DNA of 64,000 nt from the IMG/VR virus record IMGVR_UViG_3300037722_001090; one strand, 5' to 3'. The stretch is from a virus (Duplodnaviria > Caudoviricetes). The notes below the pieces were generated by a model. The model saw only the letters and a program-made list of their open reading frames with translations, did not search any database and was not told the DNA's origin. Within the stretch, counting starts at the first letter, position 1; each line of letters begins with the position of its first letter. The translations under genes and the position numbers were made by a program. Positions 2,666-38,652 of this stretch are shown here, piece after piece.

Positions 2666-3346
2666 ATGTTTTATAATTATATATTTTTAGATCCTAGAAA
2701 GCCAGGTAAATATTTATATGAAAATTTTAGTCTTCTTTATGAACCATTTTATGTCGGAAAAGGCAAAAAAGATAGATATAAAACTCACTTACGCAAAATA
2801 AGGCAATTTCAAAAAGATTCAAATAAAGAAAAACAAAAAACTATTCTTGACATATGGTCCTCTAATTTAGAAGTATTAATTATCCTACTTAATTTTACAG
2901 ATAATGAAAAATTAGCATATAAAAACGAATCTAATATTATTAAAGATATAGGTTCATTATATAATGGAGGACCACTAACAAATTTAGTAGTTTCTTATCC
3001 ATTCAATGCTTCGCCAGAATTACGTAAAACATATGGAAGATCCGGAAACAAACATCATCTTTACAATAAAGGGCATTCAGAAGAAGCCAAAAAGAAAATA
3101 TCTGACAATCATGCTGATTTCTCAGGATCTAAAAATGGTAGAGCTAAAAAATGGAAACTAACTAGTCCAAATAAGATAGAACATATTATTTGTGGTGAAC
3201 TTATTGAGTTTTGTAGAGATAATAAGTTATCTATTTACAAGCTCAAAAAAAACATAGGCAATATAGTTACACAGCAAATAAGCTCCAGAAGAGTTAAGGT
3301 CAAGCCTATTGAACCAACCACAGGATGGAAACTAGATAGAATCTAG
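2666..3346 (+). CDS. freestanding homing endonuclease (GIY-YIG-like, NUMOD3-type repeat)
   Basis: YNYIFLDP...FYVGKG; HSEEAKKKIS repeat; antisense to neighbouring genes. Confidence 0.8.
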   Translation: MFYNYIFLDPRKPGKYLYENFSLLYEPFYVGKGKKDRYKTHLRKIRQFQKDSNKEKQKTILDIWSSNLEVLIILLNFTDNEKLAYKNESNIIKDIGSLYNGGPLTNLVVSYPFNASPELRKTYGRSGNKHHLYNKGHSEEAKKKISDNHADFSGSKNGRAKKWKLTSPNKIEHIICGELIEFCRDNKLSIYKLKKNIGNIVTQQISSRRVKVKPIEPTTGWKLDRI

Positions 3347-3868: not shown

Positions 3869-4051
3869 AACTATACTTTCCTTACATTACGAGCAATGAA
3901 GACATTAGATGTTCCATCAGTCTCTAATACATGCCATCCTTGTGTATTTTTACAAAGATAGGTATAGGAACTCACCGTTGACCAATGAATCCCCATACCT
4001 ACAATCTCTGTACCCCAAATGACCCTATCGCCATATTTGAAGTCATCCATA

Positions 4052-4729
4052 TTAACGACTTAGTGCAGCTTTATATCCACGAACCTGCATTTCAGTAACA
4101 GTATAACCAGCAGCACGAAGCTCACTAGCTACCTGTGCGGACTTTTTACCTTGGCGAAGCTTATAATGGACAGCTTCTTTAAGGCTCATACTTCCAACTT
4201 TAATTGTAGCAGGTTTAACAGCAGGCTTAGTTGCAGCTTGAGTTACAGGAGCAGGCTTAAGAGATCCATTTGCCTTTACAATAGTAGCTTTTACTTTTTC
4301 AGAAAGCTCACGAGCTGCTTTTGCAATAACATCTTCAGTCTTTTCCGTTTTAGTTCCCCAGCAGTCATCATGATCGCTACATTCTGCACAATCAGGACCT
4401 TCTTCTAGTTCGTCACCGGACTCTTCATTTTCTACTTCTTTCGCTTCCGTAAGGAAGTATTCACGGAATACTGCACCATTAATATTTACATTACGGAAAG
4501 TAATATACATATCTTTACCGTCAATATCAGCAGTCATACCAGCAAACGTACAGATATTATATACATCTGACATTAGTTTACTAACGATTTCCTGAGTAGC
4601 ATAATACCCAGTTGTGCGAAGATAGTTTTTAACTTCAAGAGAAGTCACTTTCCCTGCATCAAGCATTGCCCAGTTCATGATAATTCCGACAACATCTGCA
4701 CTTACTACTTTTTTACCAATTGCGCTCAT
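4052..4729 (-). CDS. hypothetical protein
   Basis: 225-aa ORF with an acidic linker and possible C-terminal HTH. Confidence 0.7.
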   Translation of the reverse strand: MSAIGKKVVSADVVGIIMNWAMLDAGKVTSLEVKNYLRTTGYYATQEIVSKLMSDVYNICTFAGMTADIDGKDMYITFRNVNINGAVFREYFLTEAKEVENEESGDELEEGPDCAECSDHDDCWGTKTEKTEDVIAKAARELSEKVKATIVKANGSLKPAPVTQAATKPAVKPATIKVGSMSLKEAVHYKLRQGKKSAQVASELRAAGYTVTEMQVRGYKAALSR

Positions 4730-10326: not shown

Positions 10327-10362
10327 TGGTGCCCCTGGTAGGATTCGAACCTACGACAAGTG
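10327..10362 (-). pseudogene. 3' half of a disrupted tRNA (probably Arg)
   Basis: GTAGG-TTCGAAT-CCTAC-CAGGGGC-A-CCA; pairs with the 5' half at 11086-11117. Confidence 0.85.
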
Positions 10363-10363
10363 A

Positions 10364-10373
10364 GTTAATAACA
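10364..10373 (+). promoter_or_regulatory. GTTAATAACA motif variant
   Basis: At the tRNA truncation point, upstream of the HNH gene. Confidence 0.55.
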
Positions 10374-10408
10374 AATATGATTTCGAATCATAAAATAAAG
10401 GAGCTACC

Positions 10409-10987
10409 ATGTTAGTAAAATGTAAAAATTGCAATAAAGAATTTGATAAAATACCAAGTCAAATTGCAAAATCTAAAAATAATTTTTGTTCTAAATCATG
10501 TAGTGCAACATTTAACAATAAAGGTAAGCAGCGTAATCCACCAAAGATAAGAATTTGTAGACAATGTAGTTTAACATATACGTATAAGCGAAAAGAAAAC
10601 ACATTAACTTTTTGCTCTAACTGCCTTAATACACTTAAAATAGATCGCAATAAAAACATAAGTTTTGTTTCAGAACAAATTAAGCAACTCACAATTGGAG
10701 AATATCGAAATAAAGAATCCGTAAAAAGCAAACACCCATCATGGAAACATGCTCATATTCGTATACTTAATAGATCGTGGAATGCAGATTTAACTAAAAT
10801 ACCATGTCAAAACTGTAAATATGATAAACATATTGAACTATGCCATATTAAATCTGTAGCATCATTTAAAGACAATGCAGTGCTATTAGAAGTTAATAGT
10901 CCAGATAATAATCTTGTACTTTGCAGAAATTGTCATTGGGAGCTTGATAATAATATTATTAAGATTGAAGATATACCTAAAAGATAA
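10409..10987 (+). CDS. HNH homing endonuclease with Zn ribbons
   Basis: CQNC..HIELCHIK..NLVLCRNCH; antisense insert inside a tRNA gene. Confidence 0.9.
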   Translation: MLVKCKNCNKEFDKIPSQIAKSKNNFCSKSCSATFNNKGKQRNPPKIRICRQCSLTYTYKRKENTLTFCSNCLNTLKIDRNKNISFVSEQIKQLTIGEYRNKESVKSKHPSWKHAHIRILNRSWNADLTKIPCQNCKYDKHIELCHIKSVASFKDNAVLLEVNSPDNNLVLCRNCHWELDNNIIKIEDIPKR

Positions 10988-10990
10988 TAA

Positions 10991-11075
10991 TGGAGCGCCC
11001 TGGAGGAATCGAACCTCTCACATCCATCCAACTTTTTATGTACGGGTTTAGAAGACCCGTGTTGGAGCAGGGCGC
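10991..11075 (-). tRNA. D-armless tRNA-Arg(TCT)-like gene
   Basis: GCGCCCTG/CAGGGCGC-T-CCA; ACGGGT-CTTCTAA-ACCCGT; D arm replaced by CTCCAAC. Confidence 0.75.
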
Positions 11076-11085
11076 ACTACCTTAA

Positions 11086-11117
11086 ACCTTCTGCTCTATC
11101 CGCTGAGCTACAGAGGC
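11086..11117 (-). pseudogene. 5' half of a disrupted tRNA (Arg-type D loop)
   Basis: GCCTCTG-TA-GCTC-AGCGGATA-GAGC; acceptor complements 10327-10362. Confidence 0.85.
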
Positions 11118-29402: not shown

Positions 29403-29545
29403 ATTCAATTGTTATTTAATTCTTTTAGTGCCTGTATTGGCAACTACTGCAAACATATTGTCCATTTCTTGTACGATTAACTTTTTCACCACACTTGGGA
29501 CAAAAGCCAATAATACAATTAAGGCTTTGCAGATACCACTTCGTA

Positions 29546-29902
29546 TTACTGATTAACTTCCTCAGCGGCATTGGTGCCCTCCGAGATAAGTCCTTCAATA
29601 ACAGCTTTAGCAGCAGCGTCATCATCACCGAAGAAGTCTTTCATCCGGCCAATGAAACGCTCACCACGAGCATTTTTGTCGGAAAGAAGAATATTTTCTT
29701 CAGTTTTAGCAGCTTCGAAAGCAACGAGAGCAGCTTGCAGAGCTTCAACGGCTTTTGCATTATCAGCGATAACGGCGGCATTCTTAGCAATACCAACCTT
29801 AACACGAGCTTCTGCCTTGTCAAAATAACCAAGACCAGCATCGATATCTTTGCTACCACTGCACTTGCCAAAATGAAACCATTTTTTAATAGCTTTAAGC
29901 AT
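29546..29902 (-). CDS. hypothetical coiled-coil protein
   Basis: 118-aa Ala-rich ORF. Confidence 0.7.
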   Translation of the reverse strand: MLKAIKKWFHFGKCSGSKDIDAGLGYFDKAEARVKVGIAKNAAVIADNAKAVEALQAALVAFEAAKTEENILLSDKNARGERFIGRMKDFFGDDDAAAKAVIEGLISEGTNAAEEVNQ

Positions 29903-29927
29903 TTTTTAAATCCTTTATAAGAGTTGT

Positions 29928-30005
29928 TGGCTAGGGATGAGAGATTCGAACTCCCGCAAGACGCAGGATCAAAACCTGCCGCTCTACCAATTGAGCTAAT
30001 CCCCA
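29928..30005 (-). tRNA. tRNA-Gln(TTG)
   Basis: GCAGG-TTTTGAT-CCTGC; CCA. Confidence 0.9.
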
Positions 30006-30059
30006 ATGAAAAATACAACCTAGTTTCGCACCATGCTAATAGGTTGGAATAATATGTTA

Positions 30060-30207
30060 TTGTGAGGAATAAACGATGAGAGTATATTATACGCGTTCTA
30101 GCCAGTTAAACTACAGCCCTAGATTATATTACACTAGTAGAGCCGTCAGGATTTGAACCTGAATTCCGTCCTTGACATGGAAGTAACTCTTATCTACACC
30201 ATCACAA
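30060..30207 (-). ncRNA. Y RNA-like 1 (YrlA-type, permuted tRNA module)
   Basis: TGTGA-TGGTGTAG-ATAAGAG-TTACTTC ... T arm, closed acceptor, D arm ... CTCATC-GTTTATTCC-TCACA. Confidence 0.8.
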
Positions 30208-30216
30208 AATAAAAAT

Positions 30217-30291
30217 TGGTAGCTCCTGACAGAATTGAACTGTCTTTTTCGCTTTGTAAGAGCGACGTAATGCCCATTATACCAAGGAGCT
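30217..30291 (-). tRNA. tRNA-Val(TAC)
   Basis: TCGCT-CTTACAA-AGCGA; CCA. Confidence 0.9.
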
Positions 30292-30303
30292 ATCTTATAA
30301 ATA

Positions 30304-30391
30304 TGTATAAGGAATTAGCGAAAACGGAAATGTGTGCTTGGTTTATATTCAATTATAAGTAAGAAGTAACCGTTCTCTTCGCCATTATACA
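30304..30391 (-). ncRNA. Y RNA-like 2 (short form)
   Basis: GTATAA-TGGCGAAG-AGAACGG-TTACTTC ... CCGTTTTC-GCTAATTCC-TTATAC; contains GNCGAAG. Confidence 0.78.
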
Positions 30392-30401
30392 ATTCTAAAT
30401 T

Positions 30402-30477
30402 TGGTGGGGCCTTCCGGTAACGATCCGAATTCTTCTGTTCTTCAAACAGACGTGAGCACCTGCTTCACCAAAGCCCC
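30402..30477 (-). tRNA. tRNA-Phe(GAA)
   Basis: TCTGT-TTGAAGA-ACAGA; variant T loop; CCA. Confidence 0.85.
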
Positions 30478-30754
30478 AAATACCTCATCAGTATGTAATT
30501 CGTAAAGTTAAGAGGCATACATTCCATGTACTTTATTACCGCAAGAGGCTCGCTCTTAACTAAATTGTAAACTATAGTCCATATATCCGTTACATTAAGT
30601 GGTTTTGAAACCTATGTCTTCAGTGCCCCTCCAACATACTTTACTTAAACGCCCACTACAAGACACAATGCTTGCTAAAAGTCTCGCGTAATATACAGAA
30701 TTGCCACGTAAACGTGGTCTTCAAGCCCGATAGATTAAATCCAGAGCGGGAACA

Positions 30755-30830
30755 TGGTGTGCGCGGTCGGGATTGAACCGACGACCTGTAGATTAAAAGT
30801 CCACTGCTCTACCAACTGAGCTACGCGTAC
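30755..30830 (-). tRNA. tRNA-Lys(TTT)
   Basis: GTGGA-CTTTTAA-TCTAC; CCA. Confidence 0.92.
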
Positions 30831-30833
30831 ATT

Positions 30834-30974
30834 TTTATTAGGGTATAAGCGAAAAGAGTGTTTAAATCGGATGCTCTACCAACTGAGCTATATCGTTCGC
30901 GTGAGCTTTCAATAATGGGAATTGAACCCATGACCGTCTGAGGGGAAGTATCTCTTATCTACGCCACTAATAAA
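30834..30974 (-). ncRNA. Y RNA-like 3 (YrlA-type)
   Basis: TTTATTAG-TGGCGTAG-ATAAGAG ... ATGGG-TTCAATT-CCCAT ... AGCTCAGTTGGTAGAGC ... CTCTTTTCGCTTATACC-CTAATAAA. Confidence 0.8.
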
Positions 30975-30980
30975 CTTTAA

Positions 30981-31400
30981 TTAACTTGTTCTACCTATAG
31001 TTAGATGTAATCCATAATCATATGGAAAACCCATCTCTTTTCTGATATCAATGAGAAAATCACATTCAACATCAATAAACCAAAAAGGACTTGGCACGCT
31101 TAAGCCAGTTCTATCACCAGCTTGTCTTACGTTGCTACTATAAGTAAATTCTACTTCTAAGCCATTATACTTTTTCCAAAGATCCATATTATTTGGAAAT
31201 GGCTTCTCTCCTCGTATGATCGAAACATGTGAACCCCAAGATGGTTTGTTAAGCTCAACCCCCATCTCTTTAAAGGCCCACCAGCGATAATATCTAGTAA
31301 TATCTGCATCAATATTAAGAACACACCACCAGTCTTTTTTTTTCTTAAGTCCTGGCCTATAAGGATCATACTGAATAATGCCTTTACTGCTATGAATCAT
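30981..31400 (-). CDS. 2H phosphoesterase family protein
   Basis: Two Hx(S/T) motifs: SHVSII and LHLTIG. Confidence 0.75.
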   Translation of the reverse strand: MIHSSKGIIQYDPYRPGLKKKKDWWCVLNIDADITRYYRWWAFKEMGVELNKPSWGSHVSIIRGEKPFPNNMDLWKKYNGLEVEFTYSSNVRQAGDRTGLSVPSPFWFIDVECDFLIDIRKEMGFPYDYGLHLTIGRTS

Positions 31401-31576
31401 TACACTTTATTAGGCGGATTTTCCTGCCAGCGCTTCAGAGCTTTTTCAGCAACAGGATCACCGGGATGAAGTTCAAGATGTTTAGCAAGAATACGCATTT
31501 TATTATCACGAGTACGTGCACGCTTAGCGGCAATTTCACCCGGAGTAGCTTTTTTACCATTTTTACCTTTAGCCAT
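31400..31576 (-). CDS. small basic hypothetical protein
   Basis: MAKGKNGKK..., GGAG RBS. Confidence 0.6.
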   Translation of the reverse strand: MAKGKNGKKATPGEIAAKRARTRDNKMRILAKHLELHPGDPVAEKALKRWQENPPNKV

Positions 31577-31604
31577 GACAAACTCCATAATTCTAGTTAT
31601 AGGT

Positions 31605-31681
31605 TGGTGCCCCATATTGGATTTGAACCAATGACCTTCCGCTTCGTAGGCGGACGCTCTATCCAGCTGAGCTAATGTGGC
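31605..31681 (-). tRNA. tRNA-Arg(ACG)
   Basis: TCCGC-CTACGAA-GCGGA; CCA. Confidence 0.92.
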
Positions 31682-31687
31682 AAATTA

Positions 31688-31830
31688 TTTTACAAGGAAC
31701 AAACGACAACACAAATTTTTAGCGCTCTACCGATTGAGCTACACATATGCTTTTGGCATACATGACAGGACTCGAACCTGCAACCACTCTATTAGCATTA
31801 GATGTAAGTGTTATCTACGCCATTGTAAAA
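31688..31830 (-). ncRNA. Y RNA-like 4 (YrlA-type)
   Basis: TTTTACAA-TGGCGTAG-ATAACAC ... GCAGG-TTCGAGT-CCTGT, closed acceptor, D arm ... GTCGTTTGTTCC-TTGTAAAA. Confidence 0.8.
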
Positions 31831-31841
31831 CTGAAATTTTC

Positions 31842-32001
31842 TTAAGAAATATAAGGAACATTCGGATACAGATAGTTTTTTGTGCTACCATTACAACACA
31901 TGCCCATGTTTCATTATGGTGGACACGCTCGGATTCGAACCGAGACCGCATTATTATAAGTATTGAAGTAACTGTATTCTACACCATTATATTTTTCTTA
32001 A
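31842..32001 (-). ncRNA. Y RNA-like 5 (YrlA-type)
   Basis: TATAA-TGGTGTAG-AATACAG-TTACTTC ... CTCGG-TTCGAAT-CCGAG-CGTGTCC-ACCA ... GGGCATG, D arm ... CTGTATCCGAATGTTCC-TTATA. Confidence 0.8.
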
Positions 32002-32005
32002 ACTT

Positions 32006-32078
32006 TGGTACCGCTGCAGGGAGTTGATACCCCGATTTCCTAGTGGTGTACTAATGGTATTGCTTATACGACAGCGAT
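32006..32078 (-). pseudogene. degenerate tRNA-like gene
   Basis: ATCGCTG/CAGCGGT-A-CCA; non-canonical D, anticodon and T loops. Confidence 0.5.
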
Positions 32079-32178
32079 AAATTTTGGTGCCAGGTATCGG
32101 AATTTAACCGTTTTTCGAAGACATAGGTAATGATCCTAATCCCCAGTGCTGCATAACCAGACCCAACATGATTTCTTT

Positions 32179-32264
32179 TGGTACCCGACCCCGGACTCGA
32201 ACCGGGACGCCTTGCGGCATGGGGCCTAAACCCAACGGCTATACCATAGTTCGCCTAGCCGGGC
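32179..32264 (-). tRNA. tRNA-Leu(TAG)
   Basis: Loop TTTAGGC, long variable arm, CCA. Confidence 0.9.
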
Positions 32265-32271
32265 ACATTGT

Positions 32272-32787
32272 TTAACCATTATATCCTTTAAACCACTCAT
32301 CAAGCTCAGGATCTTTATGTCTTTTAACTATAAACTCATAAAGCATAGGCTGATAAGGTTTATAACTTTTCTTGAAATAGCTCATTCCAGCTTCTTCAGG
32401 TGTTCTATCTGCTTTTTTCTGATTACAATCATGACAAGCAGATGCTACATTGTCCCAGGTAGTCTTACCTCCCTTAGAGGAAGGAACTACGTGTTCAATT
32501 TCAAGTTGTTTTATGGTCAATGATGCGCCACAATAAACACAGCGATAGCCATCTCTTTCAACCATATTTTCTTTGCTGAATCTTAGTCGCTTACCATATA
32601 GCCCTTTAGCTAAATCAAACAGCTTTATCTTCTTTGGAACGAAGCTAGTCTCACGTATATTACTCAAGTCACCTTCGTAATCAACAAGAAAGGCTTTGCC
32701 GTTTTCAATCATATGCTTAGCGCGTCTGGTTGAAACTTTATTGATGCATGCAAAGTCAGCGTTGAGTACTGAAACTGACCCTTTCAT
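32272..32787 (-). CDS. HNH endonuclease (McrA-like fold)
   Basis: ERDGYRCVYCG, EHVVPSSKGG, NVASACHDCNQKKADRTPEEAGM. Confidence 0.9.
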   Translation of the reverse strand: MKGSVSVLNADFACINKVSTRRAKHMIENGKAFLVDYEGDLSNIRETSFVPKKIKLFDLAKGLYGKRLRFSKENMVERDGYRCVYCGASLTIKQLEIEHVVPSSKGGKTTWDNVASACHDCNQKKADRTPEEAGMSYFKKSYKPYQPMLYEFIVKRHKDPELDEWFKGYNG

Positions 32788-32821
32788 AATACACACTAGA
32801 CCTTTCTTTTTATTTTATTGT

Positions 32822-32899
32822 TGGTGTGACCGAGGAGATTTGAACTCCCGTTCATTGATTCACAGTCAATGCGATTAGCCTAGCTATCTTACAGTCACC
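32822..32899 (-). tRNA. tRNA-His(GTG)
   Basis: ATTGA-CTGTGAA-TCAAT; encoded G-1, with A rather than C at 73. Confidence 0.88.
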
Positions 32900-32902
32900 A
32901 CA

Positions 32903-32986
32903 TTGCAGGTACATGGGGAATCGAACCCAAAAGTGAAGAGTTTTGGAGGCTCTTGCTAACCCAGCTAGCTTTACACTCACGCACCT
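32903..32986 (-). tRNA. tRNA-Trp(CCA) with an enlarged D region
   Basis: Loop CTCCAAA; AGGTGCG/TGTACCT-G. Confidence 0.75.
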
Positions 32987-33423
32987 AAAATCGAGCTAGT
33001 TTTGTACATCGGAAACTAGCAACCTTCTGCTTACTTATCGTGTAAGTGTCCCAGACAATAAACATACAAATAAAGGGCAGGGTTTTTACCTGCATCAATA
33101 GACAATCCTTTCTTAAGGGACTGACCCTCACTAAAGAAGGTTACATATTTATATGCTTATTTTCATATAATGAGTTCTCTCCACTCAATAAGTCAAGCCT
33201 TGAAGCTACATGCAAGTCGCTATGCTTCTTACATATACCTTACCGTCAATACGGAGTATGCCGGCTTTCACCACTTTAATCAATAATCCACTCTTGGCGT
33301 TCCTTCCAAGCGATATCTGTCAATTCAGATCTAAATGGTGCGCATTCATTTTTATGGTACTCTTAGAGGGCTCGTAAGCCAAAACCATGCTATTATTGTT
33401 CAGCGTTTAGGAAATATTATTTT

Positions 33424-33468
33424 TGGTTGGGATAACTGGATTTGAACCAGTGACCCCCGAGTTATCAG
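33424..33468 (-). pseudogene. 3' part of the old tRNA-Ile(GAT)
   Basis: CTGATAA-CTCGG-GGGTC-ACTGG-TTCAAAT-CCAGT-TATCCCA-A-CCA. Confidence 0.9.
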
Positions 33469-33472
33469 CTTT

Positions 33473-33546
33473 TGGTACGCTCACTAAGAATTGAACTTAG
33501 ATGGTCCGGTTATCAGCCGAATCCTCTACCGTTGAGGTATGAGCGT
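33473..33546 (-). tRNA. tRNA-Ile(GAT), cassette-borne copy
   Basis: TTCGG-CTGATAA-CCGGA; ACGCTCA/TGAGCGT-A-CCA. Confidence 0.9.
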
Positions 33547-33561
33547 ATAGTTTCGAATTTA

Positions 33562-33571
33562 GTTATTAACA
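33562..33571 (+). promoter_or_regulatory. GTTATTAACA motif
   Basis: 28 nt upstream of the HNH start. Confidence 0.65.
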
Positions 33572-33599
33572 CTTATCACATATTGATAAGGAGTTAATA

Positions 33600-34085
33600 A
33601 TGAATTCATGCTTAAATTGTAGTAAAGAAACACTTAATCCAGTATTTTGTTCACGCTCATGTTCTGCTTCCTATGCTAATAAAATAAAGCCAAAACGTAA
33701 GAAAGAGGGTAAATGTGCAATCTGTAATGAAATAATCTCTGCTTCAAGGGCTTATTGTTCAGATATTTGTCGTGGTAAAGCTAGATCTATTGCCCGTAAA
33801 AATTCTAAAGCAAAAACGGGATATGAAAATATAAAAACCCACCGGCAAAAAGTCAAATTAAGAGCCGTACAATATAAAGGAGATAAATGTCAAATATGTA
33901 ATTATGATAAAACACCAGTTAATCTATCATTTCATCATTTAAATCCAGGTAAAAAAGATTTTAACCTTAGTGGTAATTATCACTTAACCTGGGAGACAAT
34001 ACAGGCTGAACTTGATAAATGTATTTTATTATGTATGAATTGTCATGGAGAAGTTCATGTAGGAATTATAAAAATTCCAGACTGA
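33600..34085 (+). CDS. HNH homing endonuclease
   Basis: CLNC, FCSRSC; CQICNY, SFHH, KCILLCMNCHGEVH. Confidence 0.9.
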   Translation: MNSCLNCSKETLNPVFCSRSCSASYANKIKPKRKKEGKCAICNEIISASRAYCSDICRGKARSIARKNSKAKTGYENIKTHRQKVKLRAVQYKGDKCQICNYDKTPVNLSFHHLNPGKKDFNLSGNYHLTWETIQAELDKCILLCMNCHGEVHVGIIKIPD

Positions 34086-34096
34086 GCTATACCCCA
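34077..34096 (-). pseudogene. 5' fragment of the old tRNA-Ile
   Basis: TGGGGTA-TA-GCTC-AGTCTGG; acceptor complements TATCCCA. Confidence 0.85.
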
Positions 34097-34102
34097 ATAA
34101 AC

Positions 34103-34170
34103 TGTGGAAGAACTGACGAGTCATCGTCAACAGGATATCACTTGCAACCCTACAGGAGGGAAATTCTTCC
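34103..34170 (-). ncRNA. tRNA-like element with an acceptor stem
   Basis: GGAAGAA/TTCTTCC-A; hairpin TGACGA-TGAC-TCGTCA. Confidence 0.4.
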
Positions 34171-34218
34171 ATAACTTTTTTTTAACTGGAGCGGGTAATC
34201 GGGCTACCTGCTTTTTAT

Positions 34219-34293
34219 TAGAGCGGATGGTCGGGATCGAACCGACGACAAACAGTTTGGAAAACTGCAATTCTACCACTGAATTACACCCGC
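34219..34293 (-). tRNA. tRNA-Gly(TCC)
   Basis: GCAGT-TTTCCAA-ACTGT; CCA not encoded. Confidence 0.9.
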
Positions 34294-34308
34294 ATTGAAC
34301 TTTTTAAC

Positions 34309-34393
34309 TAGTGGGACGGATAGGACTCGAACCTATGAAACCCGAAGGTGGAAGATTTACAGTCTTCTGCAATTGCCACTATGCGACTGTCCC
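34309..34393 (-). tRNA. tRNA-Tyr(GTA)
   Basis: GAAGA-CTGTAAA-TCTTC, long variable arm. Confidence 0.92.
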
Positions 34394-34760
34394 ATGATGC
34401 CACCCATAGGTGGACTTTTATTTATTGATTGGCCCCCTTCTGATCTAAAGAGCATTTAATCAAATCCGCTTGAACCAATCTTCTAGATATAATTGAGGAT
34501 TTTCTTTATAGACGTGAACTCATCCTCTGCAAACATGTCTTTCCGATAAGAGTGTAGGATTATTTTATCTTACGGGAGCTTACTCCGCTACTTCAATACC
34601 GCTAGGCTTCACCTGATTGCTTATGTCAGTCACGCCATCACCGCACATAAGGCGTGCGTCCCAGTTTCCTCTTATCTAGCAACTCAAGCCATAGACGCCT
34701 GATCCGTTCAGGTCAATTAAGAACACGATATCACAATCGGCCCTCTATGGGTTTCGTATT

Positions 34761-34814
34761 TGGTGCCAGACCAGCTGCAACCATGAATCACAGCTCTCTC
34801 GAGATCCGTCTGGC
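34761..34814 (-). ncRNA. mini tRNA-like element
   Basis: GCCAGAC/GTCTGGC-A-CCA enclosing only about 36 nt. Confidence 0.45.
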
Positions 34815-34830
34815 TTTTTGTTAAACTAAT

Positions 34831-34905
34831 TGTGGACCCTATCGGGCTCGAACCGATAACCTCCTAAGTGCAAGTCAGGTGCTCCCCCAGTTGAGCTAAG
34901 GGCCC
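34831..34905 (-). tRNA. tRNA-Ala(TGC)
   Basis: CCTGA-CTTGCAC-TTAGG; G3:U70. Confidence 0.92.
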
Positions 34906-34916
34906 ATTGTAAAATT

Positions 34917-34990
34917 TGGTCGAAAGTGATGGACTTTAACCACCGGCCTCCTCCACCCAAGGAGGTGCCCCTTCACCGGGCCGACTTTCG
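34917..34990 (-). tRNA. atypical tRNA-Pro-like gene (6-nt anticodon loop)
   Basis: CGAAAGT/ACTTTCG-A-CCA; CCTCC-TTGGGT-GGAGG; T loop TTAAAGT. Confidence 0.6.
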
Positions 34991-34997
34991 AAATTTT

Positions 34998-35076
34998 TGG
35001 ATGCGGATGCTAGATTTGAACTAGCGATCTTTTGGTTATGAGCCAAATGGGATAGGCCAGACTTCCCCAATCCGCA
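34998..35076 (-). tRNA. tRNA-Met(CAT)
   Basis: TTTGG-CTCATAA-CCAAA; TTCAAAT; CCA. Confidence 0.85.
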
Positions 35077-35102
35077 AAACCATGTAGTTTTTTTTATGAA
35101 AC

Positions 35103-35600
35103 TTAAGAAAGCAAGTTCATTGCTTTAACAAACTTTGAAGCTCCAATGATTTCAGCAGCATCATAAAAAGCATTTACTTCTTCCTGCGTTGCAATACGCA
35201 TATTCTCTTCAGTAAAATGAGGAAGATTATTGCCTACAGCACCACCAATATCGACAGCATTCTTGCCTTGATATACAGCAATAAGCTCTCCAATAGCATA
35301 GCTATGACTGTTAGTATTGTCAAGAAGAAGAATCATAGCACCTTTGGGTGCTCCAAGGACAGAAGGCAGCAAAATATCTTTGGATTTAGTAGTGATCTTT
35401 TCACCAATAAGTTCTCCTACAATACCAATAATATCTCTTTTGCCACCAGAGCAAAAGTTACCCGATCCATTGATAAGAGCTAGAAGCTTTTTAGCCTTCT
35501 CACTAGGCTCTTTCTCTTTTTCAGTATAAGCTTTTTCAAGAATAGCAGACAATTGCTTTGTTGCTTCTAGAGACATTGCTCTAAGTTCTTTCAGATCCAT
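35103..35600 (-). CDS. hypothetical protein
   Basis: Start MDLKELRAM; weakly resembles the 54927-55469 ORF (R.A..EE...F). Confidence 0.7.
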   Translation of the reverse strand: MDLKELRAMSLEATKQLSAILEKAYTEKEKEPSEKAKKLLALINGSGNFCSGGKRDIIGIVGELIGEKITTKSKDILLPSVLGAPKGAMILLLDNTNSHSYAIGELIAVYQGKNAVDIGGAVGNNLPHFTEENMRIATQEEVNAFYDAAEIIGASKFVKAMNLLS

Positions 35601-35637
35601 TTTAAAATTTCCTAAAAAGTTGTTTAAAGATACGGTG

Positions 35638-35988
35638 TTACATTTCAGAAATAAAACAATGACCATCATGTTCAACGGCCACACGAGTAGCAGGACCTAA
35701 AAGGTCACTATATTTACGAAGCCATAAACTGATTGTTGGTTGTGCTACACCAGTACTGAGAACGGCATTATAAAGCTCCTTGAACTTAATGGGAGCAGAA
35801 AATCTCCCACTTCTTCCACGGCCTAAGCGATAGTTAGGTCCAGCAGCAGCTTCAAGCTCTTTCGCAATAATACGGCGGGCTTTATATCCATATTGAGCAC
35901 CATGTGTAGGTACTCCTGGGATTTCTGCTTGTTGACGAAATTTCACTGCACGACAATCATTAAGCGCTTGTAAAAATTCCTTAGTCAT
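35638..35988 (-). CDS. hypothetical protein
   Basis: 116-aa ORF with a GAGG RBS. Confidence 0.7.
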   Translation of the reverse strand: MTKEFLQALNDCRAVKFRQQAEIPGVPTHGAQYGYKARRIIAKELEAAAGPNYRLGRGRSGRFSAPIKFKELYNAVLSTGVAQPTISLWLRKYSDLLGPATRVAVEHDGHCFISEM

Positions 35989-36010
35989 ACTAAAAATTCC
36001 TCAAAAATGT

Positions 36011-36085
36011 TGGCGGCATAGACCGGGATTGAACCGGCAACTTCCTATTCGACAGACAGGCACTCTACCATTGAGTTACTACGCC
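36011..36085 (-). tRNA. tRNA-Asp(GTC)
   Basis: CCTGT-CTGTCGA-ATAGG; G73; CCA. Confidence 0.92.
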
Positions 36086-36094
36086 AGTTAATTT

Positions 36095-36177
36095 TGGCTC
36101 TGAGAGTTGGATTTGAACCAACGACCTCGCTTTTTAAAGGCGGCCACCTACGCGCTCTACCACTGAGCTATCTCAGA
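36095..36177 (-). ncRNA. tRNA body with a distorted anticodon arm (contains CTTTAAA)
   Basis: Canonical acceptor, D and T arms; about 9 extra nt in the anticodon region. Confidence 0.65.
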
Positions 36178-36191
36178 ACACTATTCAGTTT

Positions 36192-36270
36192 TGGTTACCA
36201 GGACCGGAGTTGCACCGATGACCACCTACCCGTGTAGATAAGTAGCTCTTTTACTGAGTCTTACCCGGCA
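36192..36270 (-). tRNA. atypical tRNA (Val-like, 8-nt loop ATCTACAC)
   Basis: TGCCGGG/CCTGGTA-A-CCA; T loop TGCAACT. Confidence 0.5.
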
Positions 36271-36284
36271 ACATAATTTTTTAT

Positions 36285-36360
36285 TAGCAGTCGCACCGAG
36301 GATCGAACTCGGCTCTCAATCTTGAAAGGATTGCGTCCTGGCCTACTAGACGATGCAACC
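36285..36360 (-). tRNA. tRNA-Glu(TTC)
   Basis: CAATC-CTTTCAA-GATTG. Confidence 0.9.
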
Positions 36361-36375
36361 AAAAACCTTAAGTAA

Positions 36376-36453
36376 TGGAGCCCACTATCGGATTCGAACC
36401 GATGACCTACGGGTTACAAATCCGTTGCTCTGGCCGAACTGAGCTAAGCGGGC
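36376..36453 (-). tRNA. tRNA-Thr(TGT)
   Basis: Loop TTTGTAA; CCA. Confidence 0.92.
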
Positions 36454-36460
36454 AATTAAT

Positions 36461-36534
36461 TGGTGGGCCTTATCAGACGTTACCCTGATCCAACTGCATG
36501 TACTGTGCAGCTGAGCAACTTACACTATCGTCCC
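36461..36534 (-). pseudogene. degenerate tRNA-like gene
   Basis: CCA end; CTGCA-CAGTACA-TGCAG arm; mismatched acceptor. Confidence 0.45.
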
Positions 36535-36560
36535 ATATTAAATTTTTTATTACTACTTAT

Positions 36561-36652
36561 TGGCTCCCCAGAGTGGGCTCGAACCACTATACCGCTCTCG
36601 CGGAATACACTTGATTAACAGTCAAGCCTCTTACCAATTAGAGTACCGAGGA
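36561..36652 (-). tRNA. tRNA-Asn(GTT) with a long variable arm
   Basis: CTTGA-CTGTTAA-TCAAG; variable hairpin TTCCGC-GAGA-GCGGTA; G73; CCA. Confidence 0.85.
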
Positions 36653-37189
36653 ATGGTATTTTTTATATCTTTTTCTTACAGCAGCTTCAGAAATATCTAG
36701 TATCTCTGAAATTTGTACATTAGTCATGGTCTTTTTTAGTTCTGTTAAATCTATTTTATCCCAATTGACTTTTCCTGATAGCTTAGCTGCACAATTATGA
36801 GAACAAGTTTTATTATACATTGGTTTTGAAGCACCACAAACAGGACACTCATTAATTTTAACAGTTATCATCTTGTATTCAGCATATTTTTCATTAAAAT
36901 ATTGTTTAACTTCAGGACTAGTTCTTATTCCTGAATGTATTTCGCAATGACAATTATGACATAAAAGAATACATTTTCTTAATTCTATAATAATTTTTTC
37001 CCAAGCCTTAGGATTACCTCTTATTGCTCCAAGAGTAAATTCTTTTTTACTAGGATCAAGATGGTGCAAAGCTAACGCGTCATTACACTTATCATATCCA
37101 CAACAAGAGCATTTACCTCCCATTGATAATACAATTCTTTCTTTTGTTTTTTTACGCCACTCTTTAACACGCTCAGAACCTTCACTCAT
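36638..37189 (-). CDS. HNH homing endonuclease with a C-terminal HTH
   Basis: CSCCGY, LALHH, KCILLCHNCHCEIH; stop codon lies inside the tRNA-Asn 5' end. Confidence 0.9.
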   Translation of the reverse strand: MSEGSERVKEWRKKTKERIVLSMGGKCSCCGYDKCNDALALHHLDPSKKEFTLGAIRGNPKAWEKIIIELRKCILLCHNCHCEIHSGIRTSPEVKQYFNEKYAEYKMITVKINECPVCGASKPMYNKTCSHNCAAKLSGKVNWDKIDLTELKKTMTNVQISEILDISEAAVRKRYKKYHSSVL

Positions 37190-37219
37190 AGAACCTCCAA
37201 CATAATTATTAACTATACA

Positions 37220-37229
37220 TGTTAATAAC
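37220..37229 (-). promoter_or_regulatory. GTTATTAACA motif
   Basis: 30 nt upstream of the HNH start. Confidence 0.65.
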
Positions 37230-37356
37230 TACATTATGGTTCTAAGAGTTTTACATTTTTAAAACGAGCACTGGGAGCTTGGTACTCTCTATCACGATCA
37301 AGTCGTGCTTCGCCTACCAGTTTTATCTAGTACTTAGACTCATTTTAATAATTTAT

Positions 37357-37429
37357 TACCCAAGAACAAACGAAAACAGTGTTGGTTTCAATTCAAAGGT
37401 GAAGTAACTGTTTTCTAACACTATGGGTA
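37357..37429 (-). ncRNA. Y RNA-like 6 (short form)
   Basis: TACCCA-TAGTGTTAG-AAAACAG-TTACTTC ... CTGTTTTCGTTTGTTCT-TGGGTA. Confidence 0.72.
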
Positions 37430-37448
37430 TATTTTTAACTTTTTCTTA

Positions 37449-37525
37449 TGGTCGGAATAGCAAGAATCGAACTTGCGACCTCTCCCTCCCAAGGGGAGCG
37501 CTCTACCAGGCTGAGCCATATTCCG
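37449..37525 (-). tRNA. tRNA-Pro(TGG)
   Basis: CTCCC-CTTGGGA-GGGAG; CCA. Confidence 0.93.
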
Positions 37526-37790
37526 AAAATATAATTAGTCTATACATGTTTGTCTTTTTAGGAGACTGGTTATAACCCAGTATAGTAGGTATCTGCCTAT
37601 TGACAGAATTTTGCCACACTAATTTAATACATTATTTAATTGTCAATGAACTTAATCAACACTACGAAATAGATTAGTTGAAAGCTTAATCATATCATTC
37701 GATATATTGATTTCAAATTTTTTAAAAAGAACAACTACAAAAATAGCAAAAATTAAACATAAATACCAAAACATAGCGTATCCTTAAATT

Positions 37791-37820
37791 AAAAAACCGC
37801 AGGGATTATCTCCGCTGCGG
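37791..37820 (-). terminator. intrinsic terminator
   Basis: CCGCAG..CTGCGG hairpin followed by a T run on the minus strand. Confidence 0.7.
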
Positions 37821-38085
37821 CTAAAATAAGAATATGTATTATATTACTTAAGTAGTTACGCAGCTAGTATTAGTTGCCCAGAGATTGCCTAGATTCTTAT
37901 TATCATGGCTAGCAAAGGCTGGTATAAATGGGCGCTCAATAATTTGATACACGGGTACATTCATCTCAAGAGGTTTAAGTCTTGAATTGCATGAATAGCA
38001 CGCTTGTGTTTGAGCTAAAGAGCAACAACAGATCATTTTACTAATACTTCCTTTTCAAAAATAGCACGACTTGTGTGCTTATGTT

Positions 38086-38095
38086 TGTTAATAAC
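38086..38095 (-). promoter_or_regulatory. GTTATTAACA motif (not endonuclease-linked)
   Basis: Upstream of the small Cys-rich ORF 37848-38036. Confidence 0.5.
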
Positions 38096-38130
38096 TGGTT
38101 ATGTTTTTTTACGGAAAACTTTATTTAAGA

Positions 38131-38284
38131 TGCTAGAGAACATGCGATAAGAGAGATGGCCGAAGCCGTTCATACCGGTGCGTTTACCAATTTCGCCACC
38201 CCTCCATAAAAGTGGAGGACGCAGGACTCGAACCTGCAAATATCCGGTCCCAATAGAAGTAACTCTTATCTATCACTACTAGCA
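38131..38284 (-). ncRNA. Y RNA-like 7 (YrlA-type)
   Basis: TGCTAG-TAGTGATAG-ATAAGAG-TTACTTC ... GCAGG-TTCGAGT-CCTGC, closed acceptor, Leu-type D arm GGCGAAATTGGTAAACGC ... CTCTTATCGCATGTTCT-CTAGCA. Confidence 0.8.
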
Positions 38285-38289
38285 ATCAA

Positions 38290-38652
38290 TTAATTTTTAC
38301 GATCGACTTTGACGAAGATCTCATTAGGTGCTTCAGGAAAGTATTTAAAAAGAGCAGGACAAAGCCATCCTTCAATTCCAATTACATCCTTAACAACACA
38401 GTCCGTAATAGTATACCAGTTGCCGCCCCACTCTTCGCGTGTACGAACGAGAGAGATTTGGCTACCAGGGAAATTACTAGCAGAGAAGGTAAGAGCAACA
38501 CCTTTCTCTGCTTCAGGAATATCACCAGTAAGTGCATCAATCATAAAATTGATTGCACCAACAAAAGGTTCACGAACAAGACCAACTTTGTCATCATCAA
38601 ACGCCCAGATGCCACCGTTCCTGTACGGATAGATAACCATCAGTGCATTCAT
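38290..38652 (-). CDS. conserved hypothetical protein (DUF6717-like)
   Basis: IYPY..GIWAFDD..GL.REPFV, WLCPALFKYF. Confidence 0.6.
   Translation of the reverse strand: MNALMVIYPYRNGGIWAFDDDKVGLVREPFVGAINFMIDALTGDIPEAEKGVALTFSASNFPGSQISLVRTREEWGGNWYTITDCVVKDVIGIEGWLCPALFKYFPEAPNEIFVKVDRKN

Follow-up and report, generated by a model that had tools for sequence, protein, structure and literature searches.

A putative selfish cassette of an HNH endonuclease gene and a tRNA-Ile gene inside a broken phage tRNA-Ile gene

The split tRNA-Ile gene and its insert

As listed in Table 1, a tRNA-Ile(GAT) gene lies in two pieces in the tRNA array of the IMG/VR virus record IMGVR_UViG_3300037722_001090 (Duplodnaviria; Caudoviricetes), and the DNA between the pieces carries an antisense gene for a free-standing HNH endonuclease together with a second, complete tRNA-Ile(GAT) gene. 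The stretch analysed, called the window below, is 64,000 nucleotides (nt) long, has a G+C content of 37%, and belongs to a large phage from sediment and soil metagenomes. ARAGORN finds a total of 24 tRNA genes in the window, and the array on the minus strand spans about 29900-37600. A 124-nt spacer separates the upstream neighbour, tRNA-Gly, from the 5′ piece of the old tRNA-Ile gene. This piece is made up of the acceptor strand TGGGGTA, TA (positions 8-9), GCTC (the 5′ strand of the D stem), and AGTCTGG (the D loop up to its GG), and its D region is canonical (TA-GCTC-AG..GG). The 3′ piece is made up of the loop CTGATAA, from which the anticodon GAT is read, CTCGG (the 3′ strand of the anticodon stem), the variable loop GGGTC, a perfect T arm, the acceptor strand TATCCCA (33428-33434), A, and CCA. 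When searched alone, it gives a 5′-truncated match to the Rfam tRNA model (25.5 bits, model positions 31-71, E-value 4e-4). Since the acceptor strands of the two pieces pair at seven of seven positions (one of them a G-T pair), and since such pairing of two fixed 7-mers has a chance of about 0.001, both outer pieces are parts of one former gene. Contigs of the Logan collection from other sediment samples (3 records) have zero differences to the window across both junctions, and the arrangement is also present in two JGI contigs. Thus, the split structure is not an assembly artefact.

Is the old tRNA still functional? The old gene lacks about 12 nt, namely the 3′ strand of the D stem, position 26, and the 5′ strand of the anticodon stem. 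Thus, splicing of the halves cannot restore a tRNA. Group I introns occur in the anticodon loops of bacterial and phage tRNAs (PMC3984707), which would speak for removal of the insert as an intron or for joining of the halves in trans. However, the joined halves would give no tRNA because of the missing nucleotides, no intron family of Rfam, including Intron_gpI, matches positions 29000-38500 even at E-values up to 10, and neither terminal direct or inverted repeats nor bounding hairpins of the insert were found. It is therefore extremely improbable that the old gene still yields a tRNA.

The insert between the old halves is 608 bp in length (33469-34076) and consists of exactly two genes, for the HNH protein and for tRNA-Ile, with a 53-nt spacer between them; no integrase is encoded. 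The new tRNA-Ile scores 62.4 bits with the Rfam tRNA model, against a gathering score of 29, and the cloverleaf is its minimum-free-energy fold (z -3.1). The old and new sequences are 48% identical over the first 20 nt and 67% identical over the last 45 nt. On the other side of the insert, the TGA stop codon of the HNH gene sits in the old D loop, so that the open reading frame (ORF) reaches 9 nt into the 5′ remnant. A scan for sigma-70 promoters and terminators gave nothing above shuffled controls.

The HNH gene is free-standing; it lies outside any intron or intein and has its own start codon and its own upstream motif. Its product matches the PHROG families phrog_2255 (E-value 7e-25) and phrog_35854 (E-value 5e-21), both annotated as "HNH endonuclease". 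With the Pfam domain AI2M-like_HNH it scores 18.4 bits, which is under the cut-off of 23, and a paralogue in the window (36638-37189) passes this cut-off with 24.7 bits. In an alignment of the protein with 11 homologues, residues C97, C100, H112, H113, C145, N147, C148, H149, and H153 are invariant, and the catalytic His...Asn...His and both CxxC zinc pairs are all kept. These profile matches and residues place the protein in the HNH (beta-beta-alpha-metal) endonuclease superfamily; proteins of the GIY-YIG type are encoded elsewhere in the window (2666-3346 and 54043-54816). A search of PDB with the profile of the HNH family gave weak matches to McrA (E-value 0.0065) and to a group II intron maturase (E-value 0.047). 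The N-terminal part of the protein has Cys-rich repeats of the FCSRSC type, which are probably a DNA-binding zinc ribbon, and the HNH domain is C-terminal. Because the ORF is full-length, the HNH and zinc residues are invariant, and PHROG families of HNH proteins are matched with an E-value of 7e-25, the nuclease looks functional.

The original prediction, which was made from the letters of the window, had described two halves of a tRNA-Ile gene with pairing acceptor strands, an antisense HNH gene between them, and a complete, divergent tRNA with the same GAT anticodon, and had held that the arrangement needs neither intron nor intein. The direct reading of the halves, the PHROG, ARAGORN, and Rfam matches, and the intron search agree with this description throughout.

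Table 1. Coordinates of the split tRNA-Ile locus, the second cassette, and the motif sites in the window
Feature	Position	Strand	Remark
tRNA-Gly	34293-34221	minus	array neighbour upstream of the old 5′ piece; preceded by tRNA-Tyr
Old tRNA-Ile 5′ remnant, 20 nt	34096-34077	minus	read directly
Free-standing HNH endonuclease gene, 161 amino acids	33600-34085	plus	intact ORF, antisense to the tRNA array
Motif AGTTATTAACA	33561-33571	plus	39 nt upstream of the HNH start codon
New intact tRNA-Ile(GAT), CCA encoded	33546-33473	minus	found by ARAGORN; divergent transcription relative to the HNH gene
Four-base joint AAAG	33469-33472	minus	from the CCA end of the new tRNA to the old 3′ remnant, read directly
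Old tRNA-Ile 3′ remnant, 45 nt	33468-33424	minus	anticodon loop to CCA
Second cassette, same layout	10327-11117	minus	HNH 27% identical
Arg-type old 5′ part	11117 to ~11085	minus	Arg-type D loop, running into the anticodon loop
Non-canonical tRNA-like gene, UCU loop	11076-10994	minus	no D arm
HNH gene of the second cassette, 192 amino acids	10409-10987	plus	antisense; 27% identical to the Ile-linked HNH
Old 3′ part of the second cassette	10360-10327	minus	T arm and acceptor strand
AGTTATTAACA sites upstream of nuclease genes	2625, 10363, 25783(-), 33561, 37220(-), 54010		
Further AGTTATTAACA sites	16860(-), 38086(-)		

Related loci in other phages and in the window

Is the nesting found in other phages? 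The 125-kb contig L016 encodes an HNH protein that is 65% identical to that of the window, and several of its other proteins are 37-66% identical to proteins of the window. The order of features there is an old 5′ stub, a leader with AGTTATTAACA, the HNH gene in sense orientation, tRNA-Ile(GAT), and an old 3′ stub. The tRNA-Ile(GAT) begins one base past the HNH stop codon and is 69% identical to the new tRNA-Ile of the window. The 242-kb contig L017 encodes an HNH protein that is 52% identical, and it has otherwise no similarity to the window. On the tRNA strand, its order is a 5′ stub through the D arm, an antisense HNH gene, a tRNA-Ile(GAU)-like gene, and a 3′ stub. The tRNA-Ile(GAU)-like gene (3924-4000, minus strand) abuts the HNH start codon, scores 30.1 bits with the Rfam tRNA model, and has 4 nt instead of a D arm.

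The old acceptor strands pair at seven of seven positions in L016 and also in L017. Among the window, L016, and L017, the acceptor pairs 1-72, 4-69, and 5-68 differ on both strands, and the 5′ halves match solely the 3′ halves of their own genomes; the 5′ half of the window and the 3′ half of L017, for example, pair at five of seven positions. Since broken halves are under no selection for complementarity, the differences would have arisen in intact genes, and at least three lineage-specific tRNA genes thus appear to have been broken separately. The 5′ junction lies at about tRNA position 20 in the window, 21 in L016, and 27 in L017. The 3′ remnants start in the anticodon loop in the window, in L017, and in two further contigs, L022 (HNH with tRNA-Ile) and L023 (HNH with tRNA-Asn), which retain the old 3′ stub only. 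A common break site is therefore indicated.

These comparisons bear on the idea that the split is a recombination scar, formed via the conserved D and T motifs of tRNA arrays, with the HNH gene as a bystander of a kind common in tRNA clusters. HNH and GIY-YIG genes are indeed common in phage tRNA clusters without a split tRNA (32272-32796 of the window, L007-L009, and L025), and orphan T arms, along with several odd tRNA-like genes, occur elsewhere in the window. However, the same HNH clade is found inside the split in three phages, the breaks fall within one part of the tRNA, which begins in the D loop or anticodon stem and reaches to the anticodon loop, and the distance from the end of the insert is at most 9 nt to the HNH stop codon on one side and 4 nt to the CCA of the new tRNA on the other. 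Moreover, most of the other orphan T arms are permuted tRNA modules of Y-RNA-like genes, as seen from Rfam YrlA matches. A scar with a bystander gene is thus very unlikely.

Some other features of these contigs may be recorded here. The HNH homologue of L022 (146-694) matches a database protein only when TAG is read as Gln, which places the cassette family in a stop-codon-recoded phage. In L017, two extra orphan fragments, each a T arm plus acceptor strand, lie between tRNA-Gly and the broken tRNA-Ile (4510-4533 and 4575-4598, both on the minus strand); their presence suggests earlier rounds of breakage at the same locus. In Yersinia phage fHe-Yen9-03 (L012, 901-1139), two adjacent tRNA-Pro(TGG) genes, one of them annotated as a pseudogene, and a tRNA-Val gene are the immediate upstream neighbours of a distant HNH homologue. 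This arrangement may be a swap that kept the old copy whole.

The linkage between nuclease and tRNA was surveyed in 17 members of the HNH family. A tRNA-Ile(GAT) gene adjoins the nuclease gene in six of the 17 (the window, L016, L017, L022, L026, and Salmonella phage Felix O1), and a tRNA-Asn(GTT) gene does so in eight (the paralogue at 36638-37189 of the window, L007, L008, L009, L021, and L023-L025). The position of the tRNA relative to the nuclease gene varies; it may be downstream in sense, upstream in sense, or upstream in antisense orientation. Adjacency that persists through such rearrangement argues for selection on the linkage, as expected if the tRNA were the rescue half of a cassette.

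The Asn-linked paralogue (minus strand) has an N-terminal HNH domain, 49% identical to the Ile-linked one, and a C-terminal zinc ribbon. The last 15 nt of its gene overlap with the 5′ end of the tRNA-Asn(GTT) gene (36561-36652, minus strand), which has a variable arm of 21 nt. An HNH gene followed by tRNA-Asn was also found in Hafnia phage SarahDanielle, in Vibrio phages VH1_2019 and F86, and in several metagenome contigs.

The closest homologue from a cultured phage is ORF44 of Felix O1 (NP_944863), annotated as "HNH endonuclease" (43% identity, E-value 8e-30), which lies in the tRNA cluster and overlaps with the 5′ end of tRNA-Ile(GAT). Like the HNH protein of the window, it is 161 amino acids in length, has the same domain order, and is encoded in a tRNA cluster; its presence is patchy among relatives. 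Unlike the HNH gene of the window, ORF44 is co-oriented with its tRNA and upstream of it, and it is inserted cleanly between tRNA-Met and tRNA-Ile, without broken halves. No functional study of ORF44 was found in the literature searched. The region from tRNA-Lys to past tRNA-Ile matches about 263 Felix-like records, 12 of which have the HNH gene, at one precise site. The tRNA-Ile(GAT) gene of HNH-less Felix-like phages comes in at least three unrelated alleles, which are 62-67% identical to one another and have identical flanks; M (phage Mushroom) and C (phage C600M2) are two of them. This pattern amounts to whole-gene allele replacement in cultured, closely related phages. One of the alleles, F, is present in at least 10 of the 12 HNH-bearing records, counted in the best 40 of 47 allele-F rows. 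The Felix-like data are thus a presence/absence polymorphism plus an association of enzyme and allele, compatible with F as a resistant passenger and equally with F as an allele that permits the insertion. As for the slot itself, the alleles lie between tRNA-Met and a conserved downstream flank, and the identity of the flanks extends to 1-2 nt of the tRNA ends (L001, L004-L006, and L013-L015).

It had also been predicted that the same layout recurs at other tRNA genes of the window. This is true of one further clear case, the second cassette of Table 1; it does not hold for the HNH genes at 32272-32796 and 36638-37189, as they lack halves at their flanks. The old acceptor strands of the second cassette, GCCTCTG and CAGGGGC, pair at seven of seven positions. 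In the RNA with the UCU loop, a 6-bp helix (TCCAAC/GTTGGA) lengthens the anticodon arm, and the fold has a z of -3.4.

Proposed mechanism and its place among known systems

Judging from these sequence comparisons, the 608 bp are likely to be a two-gene selfish cassette, an HNH homing endonuclease gene plus a tRNA-Ile(GAT) gene, that was copied into a resident tRNA-Ile(GAT) gene. In a mixed infection, the HNH protein would cut the tRNA-Ile gene of a cassette-free genome in the region from the D stem to the anticodon loop. Resection of the break would remove about 5-12 nt, and repair from the cassette-bearing genome would copy in the nuclease gene and the linked tRNA gene. The destroyed target could not be cut again, and tRNA-Ile function would be retained via the divergent copy on the insert. 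The replacement gene would in this way meet the cost that introns and inteins normally remove by splicing. The breakage in the D-stem to anticodon-loop region with the resection of a few bases is what I infer from the remnants. The exact cut site is presumed, as are a resistant new allele, a new tRNA that is expressed and charged, and inheritance in favour of the cassette. The earlier claim that the nuclease breaks a tRNA gene and carries its replacement gains comparative support from the nesting in L016 and L017, the co-adapted halves, the linkage to tRNA-Ile, and the allele association in Felix-like phages. Its extension to a general strategy is likewise favoured, as the closest HNH homologues are nested in the same manner in other phages, with separate junctions.

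A known system lends plausibility to the mechanism. SegB of phages T4 and T6 is a free-standing GIY-YIG homing endonuclease encoded in a phage tRNA cluster; it recognises the DNA of tRNA genes (a T-arm motif), and in mixed infections it drives its own inheritance and that of adjacent tRNA genes (PMC2330249; PMC13096335). Since SegB recognises tRNA-gene DNA and spreads itself, the mechanism proposed here is plausible. Like the HNH gene of the cassette, segB is a free-standing nuclease gene within a phage tRNA array. In contrast, SegB belongs to the GIY-YIG and not to the HNH type, and its gene lies between intact tRNA genes with no broken target around it. No dedicated replacement with the same anticodon has been described for SegB, and its target motif is common to many tRNAs, whereas the HNH clade of the cassette is tied to the genes for tRNA-Ile(GAU) or tRNA-Asn(GUU).

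The example of SegB, which spreads the surrounding tRNA genes along with itself (PMC2330249), also supports a simpler account, namely ordinary intronless homing with co-conversion. The "new" tRNA would then be the neighbouring tRNA-Ile of the donor that was dragged along, rather than a gene dedicated to rescue, and the halves would be the product of one sloppy repair between poorly homologous genomes. The clean 0.5-kb insertion of the Felix-like HNH gene beside allele F and the 35 allele-F records without the gene fit this account, as do the differing junction positions in the window, L016, and L017. However, three phages each have the nuclease and tRNA-Ile(GAT) nested in a broken tRNA, with a separate pair of halves in every case, and the two genes remain adjacent despite changes in order and orientation. 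In addition, nothing else is present in the insert, whereas co-converted flanks are normally longer and more varied. Co-conversion by ordinary homing is therefore unlikely, although it is the strongest of the alternatives to a selfish cassette.

Several results weigh against the reading as a selfish cassette with its own rescue gene. The varying 5′ junctions are more readily explained by imprecise repair or subsequent erosion than by precise homing via fixed homology arms. A tree of the 17 HNH proteins did not resolve the Ile-linked from the Asn-linked members, and 10 of its 14 inner branches were left open. In the Felix-like phages, allele F is also present in 35 HNH-less records, in which the HNH gene is precisely missing between two CAAT repeats; where present, the gene is a clean insertion between genes with CAAT on either side. 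Classical homing next to an allele that was already there accounts for this pattern no less well than a linked rescue gene does. Finally, no cassette-free relative was found in INPHARED, IMG/VR, JGI metagenomes, or four sediment runs, and there is no before-after pair for the locus. The prediction had proposed that related phages with the uninterrupted allele be sought, and this search thus came out empty.

The search covered both the phage and the allele. For relatives of the whole phage, a DNA search of INPHARED gave only a match to tRNA-Tyr, the best match of the PhoH protein was 42%, and no relative was found in IMG/VR by a neighbouring protein. For the intact old allele, exact and gapped patterns had no match in IMG/VR and JGI metagenomes, and IMG/VR likewise yielded no unbroken form of the old L016 or L017 allele. 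With a looser pattern of the reconstructed anticodon arm, four intact tRNA-Ile genes from metagenomes were found (L028-L031), whose anticodon arm and variable loop are identical to those sought. They lie on unrelated contigs with G+C contents of 46-68% and no protein match to the window; they are evidence only for the existence of such an arm in real genes. Over 29500-38000, the four sediment runs gave only low-depth contigs identical to the window and no joint that skips the cassette; absence there is not evidence. The other joints and the high-depth bins in these runs are from tRNAs of other organisms.

A broader hypothesis is that the cassette belongs to a natural "home-and-rescue" drive that is widespread in phages, with HNH clades each directed at the anticodon-arm DNA of one isoacceptor (Ile-GAU, Asn-GUU, or Arg-UCU) and each in an obligate pair with a resistant tRNA. 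I put this forward tentatively, as a possibility that falls slightly on the doubtful side. If it is true, repeated attack and replacement would explain the turnover of whole tRNA alleles within fixed flanks, as for tRNA-Ile in Felix-like phages. It would also explain why replacement tRNAs drift to non-canonical forms, such as the D-arm-less copies at 10994-11076 and in L017, and why half genes litter tRNA arrays.

Homing endonuclease genes persist in essential genes via introns or inteins, or they sit between genes. Breaking the target and carrying a stand-in for it would add another solution to these, the first one for RNA genes. In the genes-in-pieces arrangement of phage Aeh1, nrdA is split by mobE. 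The insertion of homing endonuclease genes also splits genes in "fractured genes" with split inteins (PMC2677866). In both of these, as in the cassette, a free-standing endonuclease gene sits within an essential gene, and neither an intron nor a contiguous intein is there to take it out again. In contrast, the two protein pieces reassemble there, whereas the pieces around the cassette are dead and a whole second gene would substitute for them. A mobile endonuclease ORF in the mitochondrial atp6 gene of Allomyces macrogynus was reportedly described by Paquin, Laforest and Lang in 1994. Like the cassette, this element inserts in a gene, brings a foreign copy of the displaced part, and leaves a native remnant. 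It differs in that the target is a protein gene of which only the 3′ portion is replaced in frame, giving a hybrid gene, whereas the cassette brings a complete, separate RNA gene.

Integrative elements with tRNA genes as their targets rebuild the 3′ part of the gene from attP. They resemble the cassette in that they lie inside a tRNA gene, keep its function by a sequence that they carry, and leave a fragment. However, they have an integrase and a direct repeat of the 3′ part, and the cassette has neither; both old halves are remnants in the cassette, and the replacement is a whole, divergent gene. ClvR ("cleave and rescue") and HomeR ("home and rescue") are engineered Cas9 gene drives in insects. 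They share the logic proposed for the cassette, namely a nuclease that destroys an essential gene and, in tight linkage with it, a copy of this gene that resists cleavage. The difference is that those are engineered Cas9 systems of insects, whereas the cassette would be a natural, protein-guided nuclease of phages.

In a full-text literature search, no published account was found of a cassette whose endonuclease breaks a tRNA gene while the cassette itself provides an entire replacement. As far as the compared sequences indicate, a free-standing homing endonuclease that is linked to a substitute for its own target looks like a general and apparently undescribed means of invading essential RNA genes. 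If true, it would provide a mechanism for the rapid turnover of phage tRNA alleles, for tRNA fragments in arrays, and for some structurally odd phage tRNAs. The idea is directly testable; Felix O1, a standard laboratory phage, has the 43%-identical homologue by its tRNA-Ile, and natural relatives without the nuclease carry other alleles.

A shared leader motif and unusual tRNA genes

With one mismatch allowed, the motif AGTTATTAACA has 10 matches in the window, compared with 3.5 expected. Six nuclease genes have it 30-46 nt ahead of their start codons; two of these are of the GIY-YIG type, three of the HNH type, and one is HNH/EndoVII-like. The same leader with the motif also precedes the 65%-identical HNH gene of L016 (site at about 3961). 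It is thus a candidate for a phage promoter or control element common to selfish nuclease genes. Another sequence, GCGTATAGTT, is common to the window and L016 upstream of the HNH leader. The idea that it is a relic 5′ stub carried by the cassette lacks clear support from the alignment.

The tRNAs linked to HNH genes are often non-canonical, as seen at 10994-11076 and 36561-36652 of the window and at 3924-4000 of L017 (all on the minus strand). Such odd shapes could be an escape from a nuclease that reads the DNA of the D arm and the anticodon arm. A further tRNA-like gene of the window (53405-53540, minus strand) has a perfect acceptor stem (GGGGGAG/CTCCCCC), normal D and T arms, and about 55 extra nucleotides in the region of the anticodon and the variable loop. 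The GIY-YIG gene at 54043-54816 (plus strand) lies about 500 nt upstream of it. Three further tRNA-like genes without an ARAGORN call lie at 22745-22815, 36186-36275, and 32905-32980, all on the minus strand. In one of the three, which has a CAU loop, the anticodon stem is 8 bp long and a hairpin replaces the D arm; another has an acceptor stem of 8 bp (TTGCCGGG/CCTGGTAA); and one is a probable tRNA-Trp(CCA) that matches the Rfam tRNA-Sec model with 28.5 bits.

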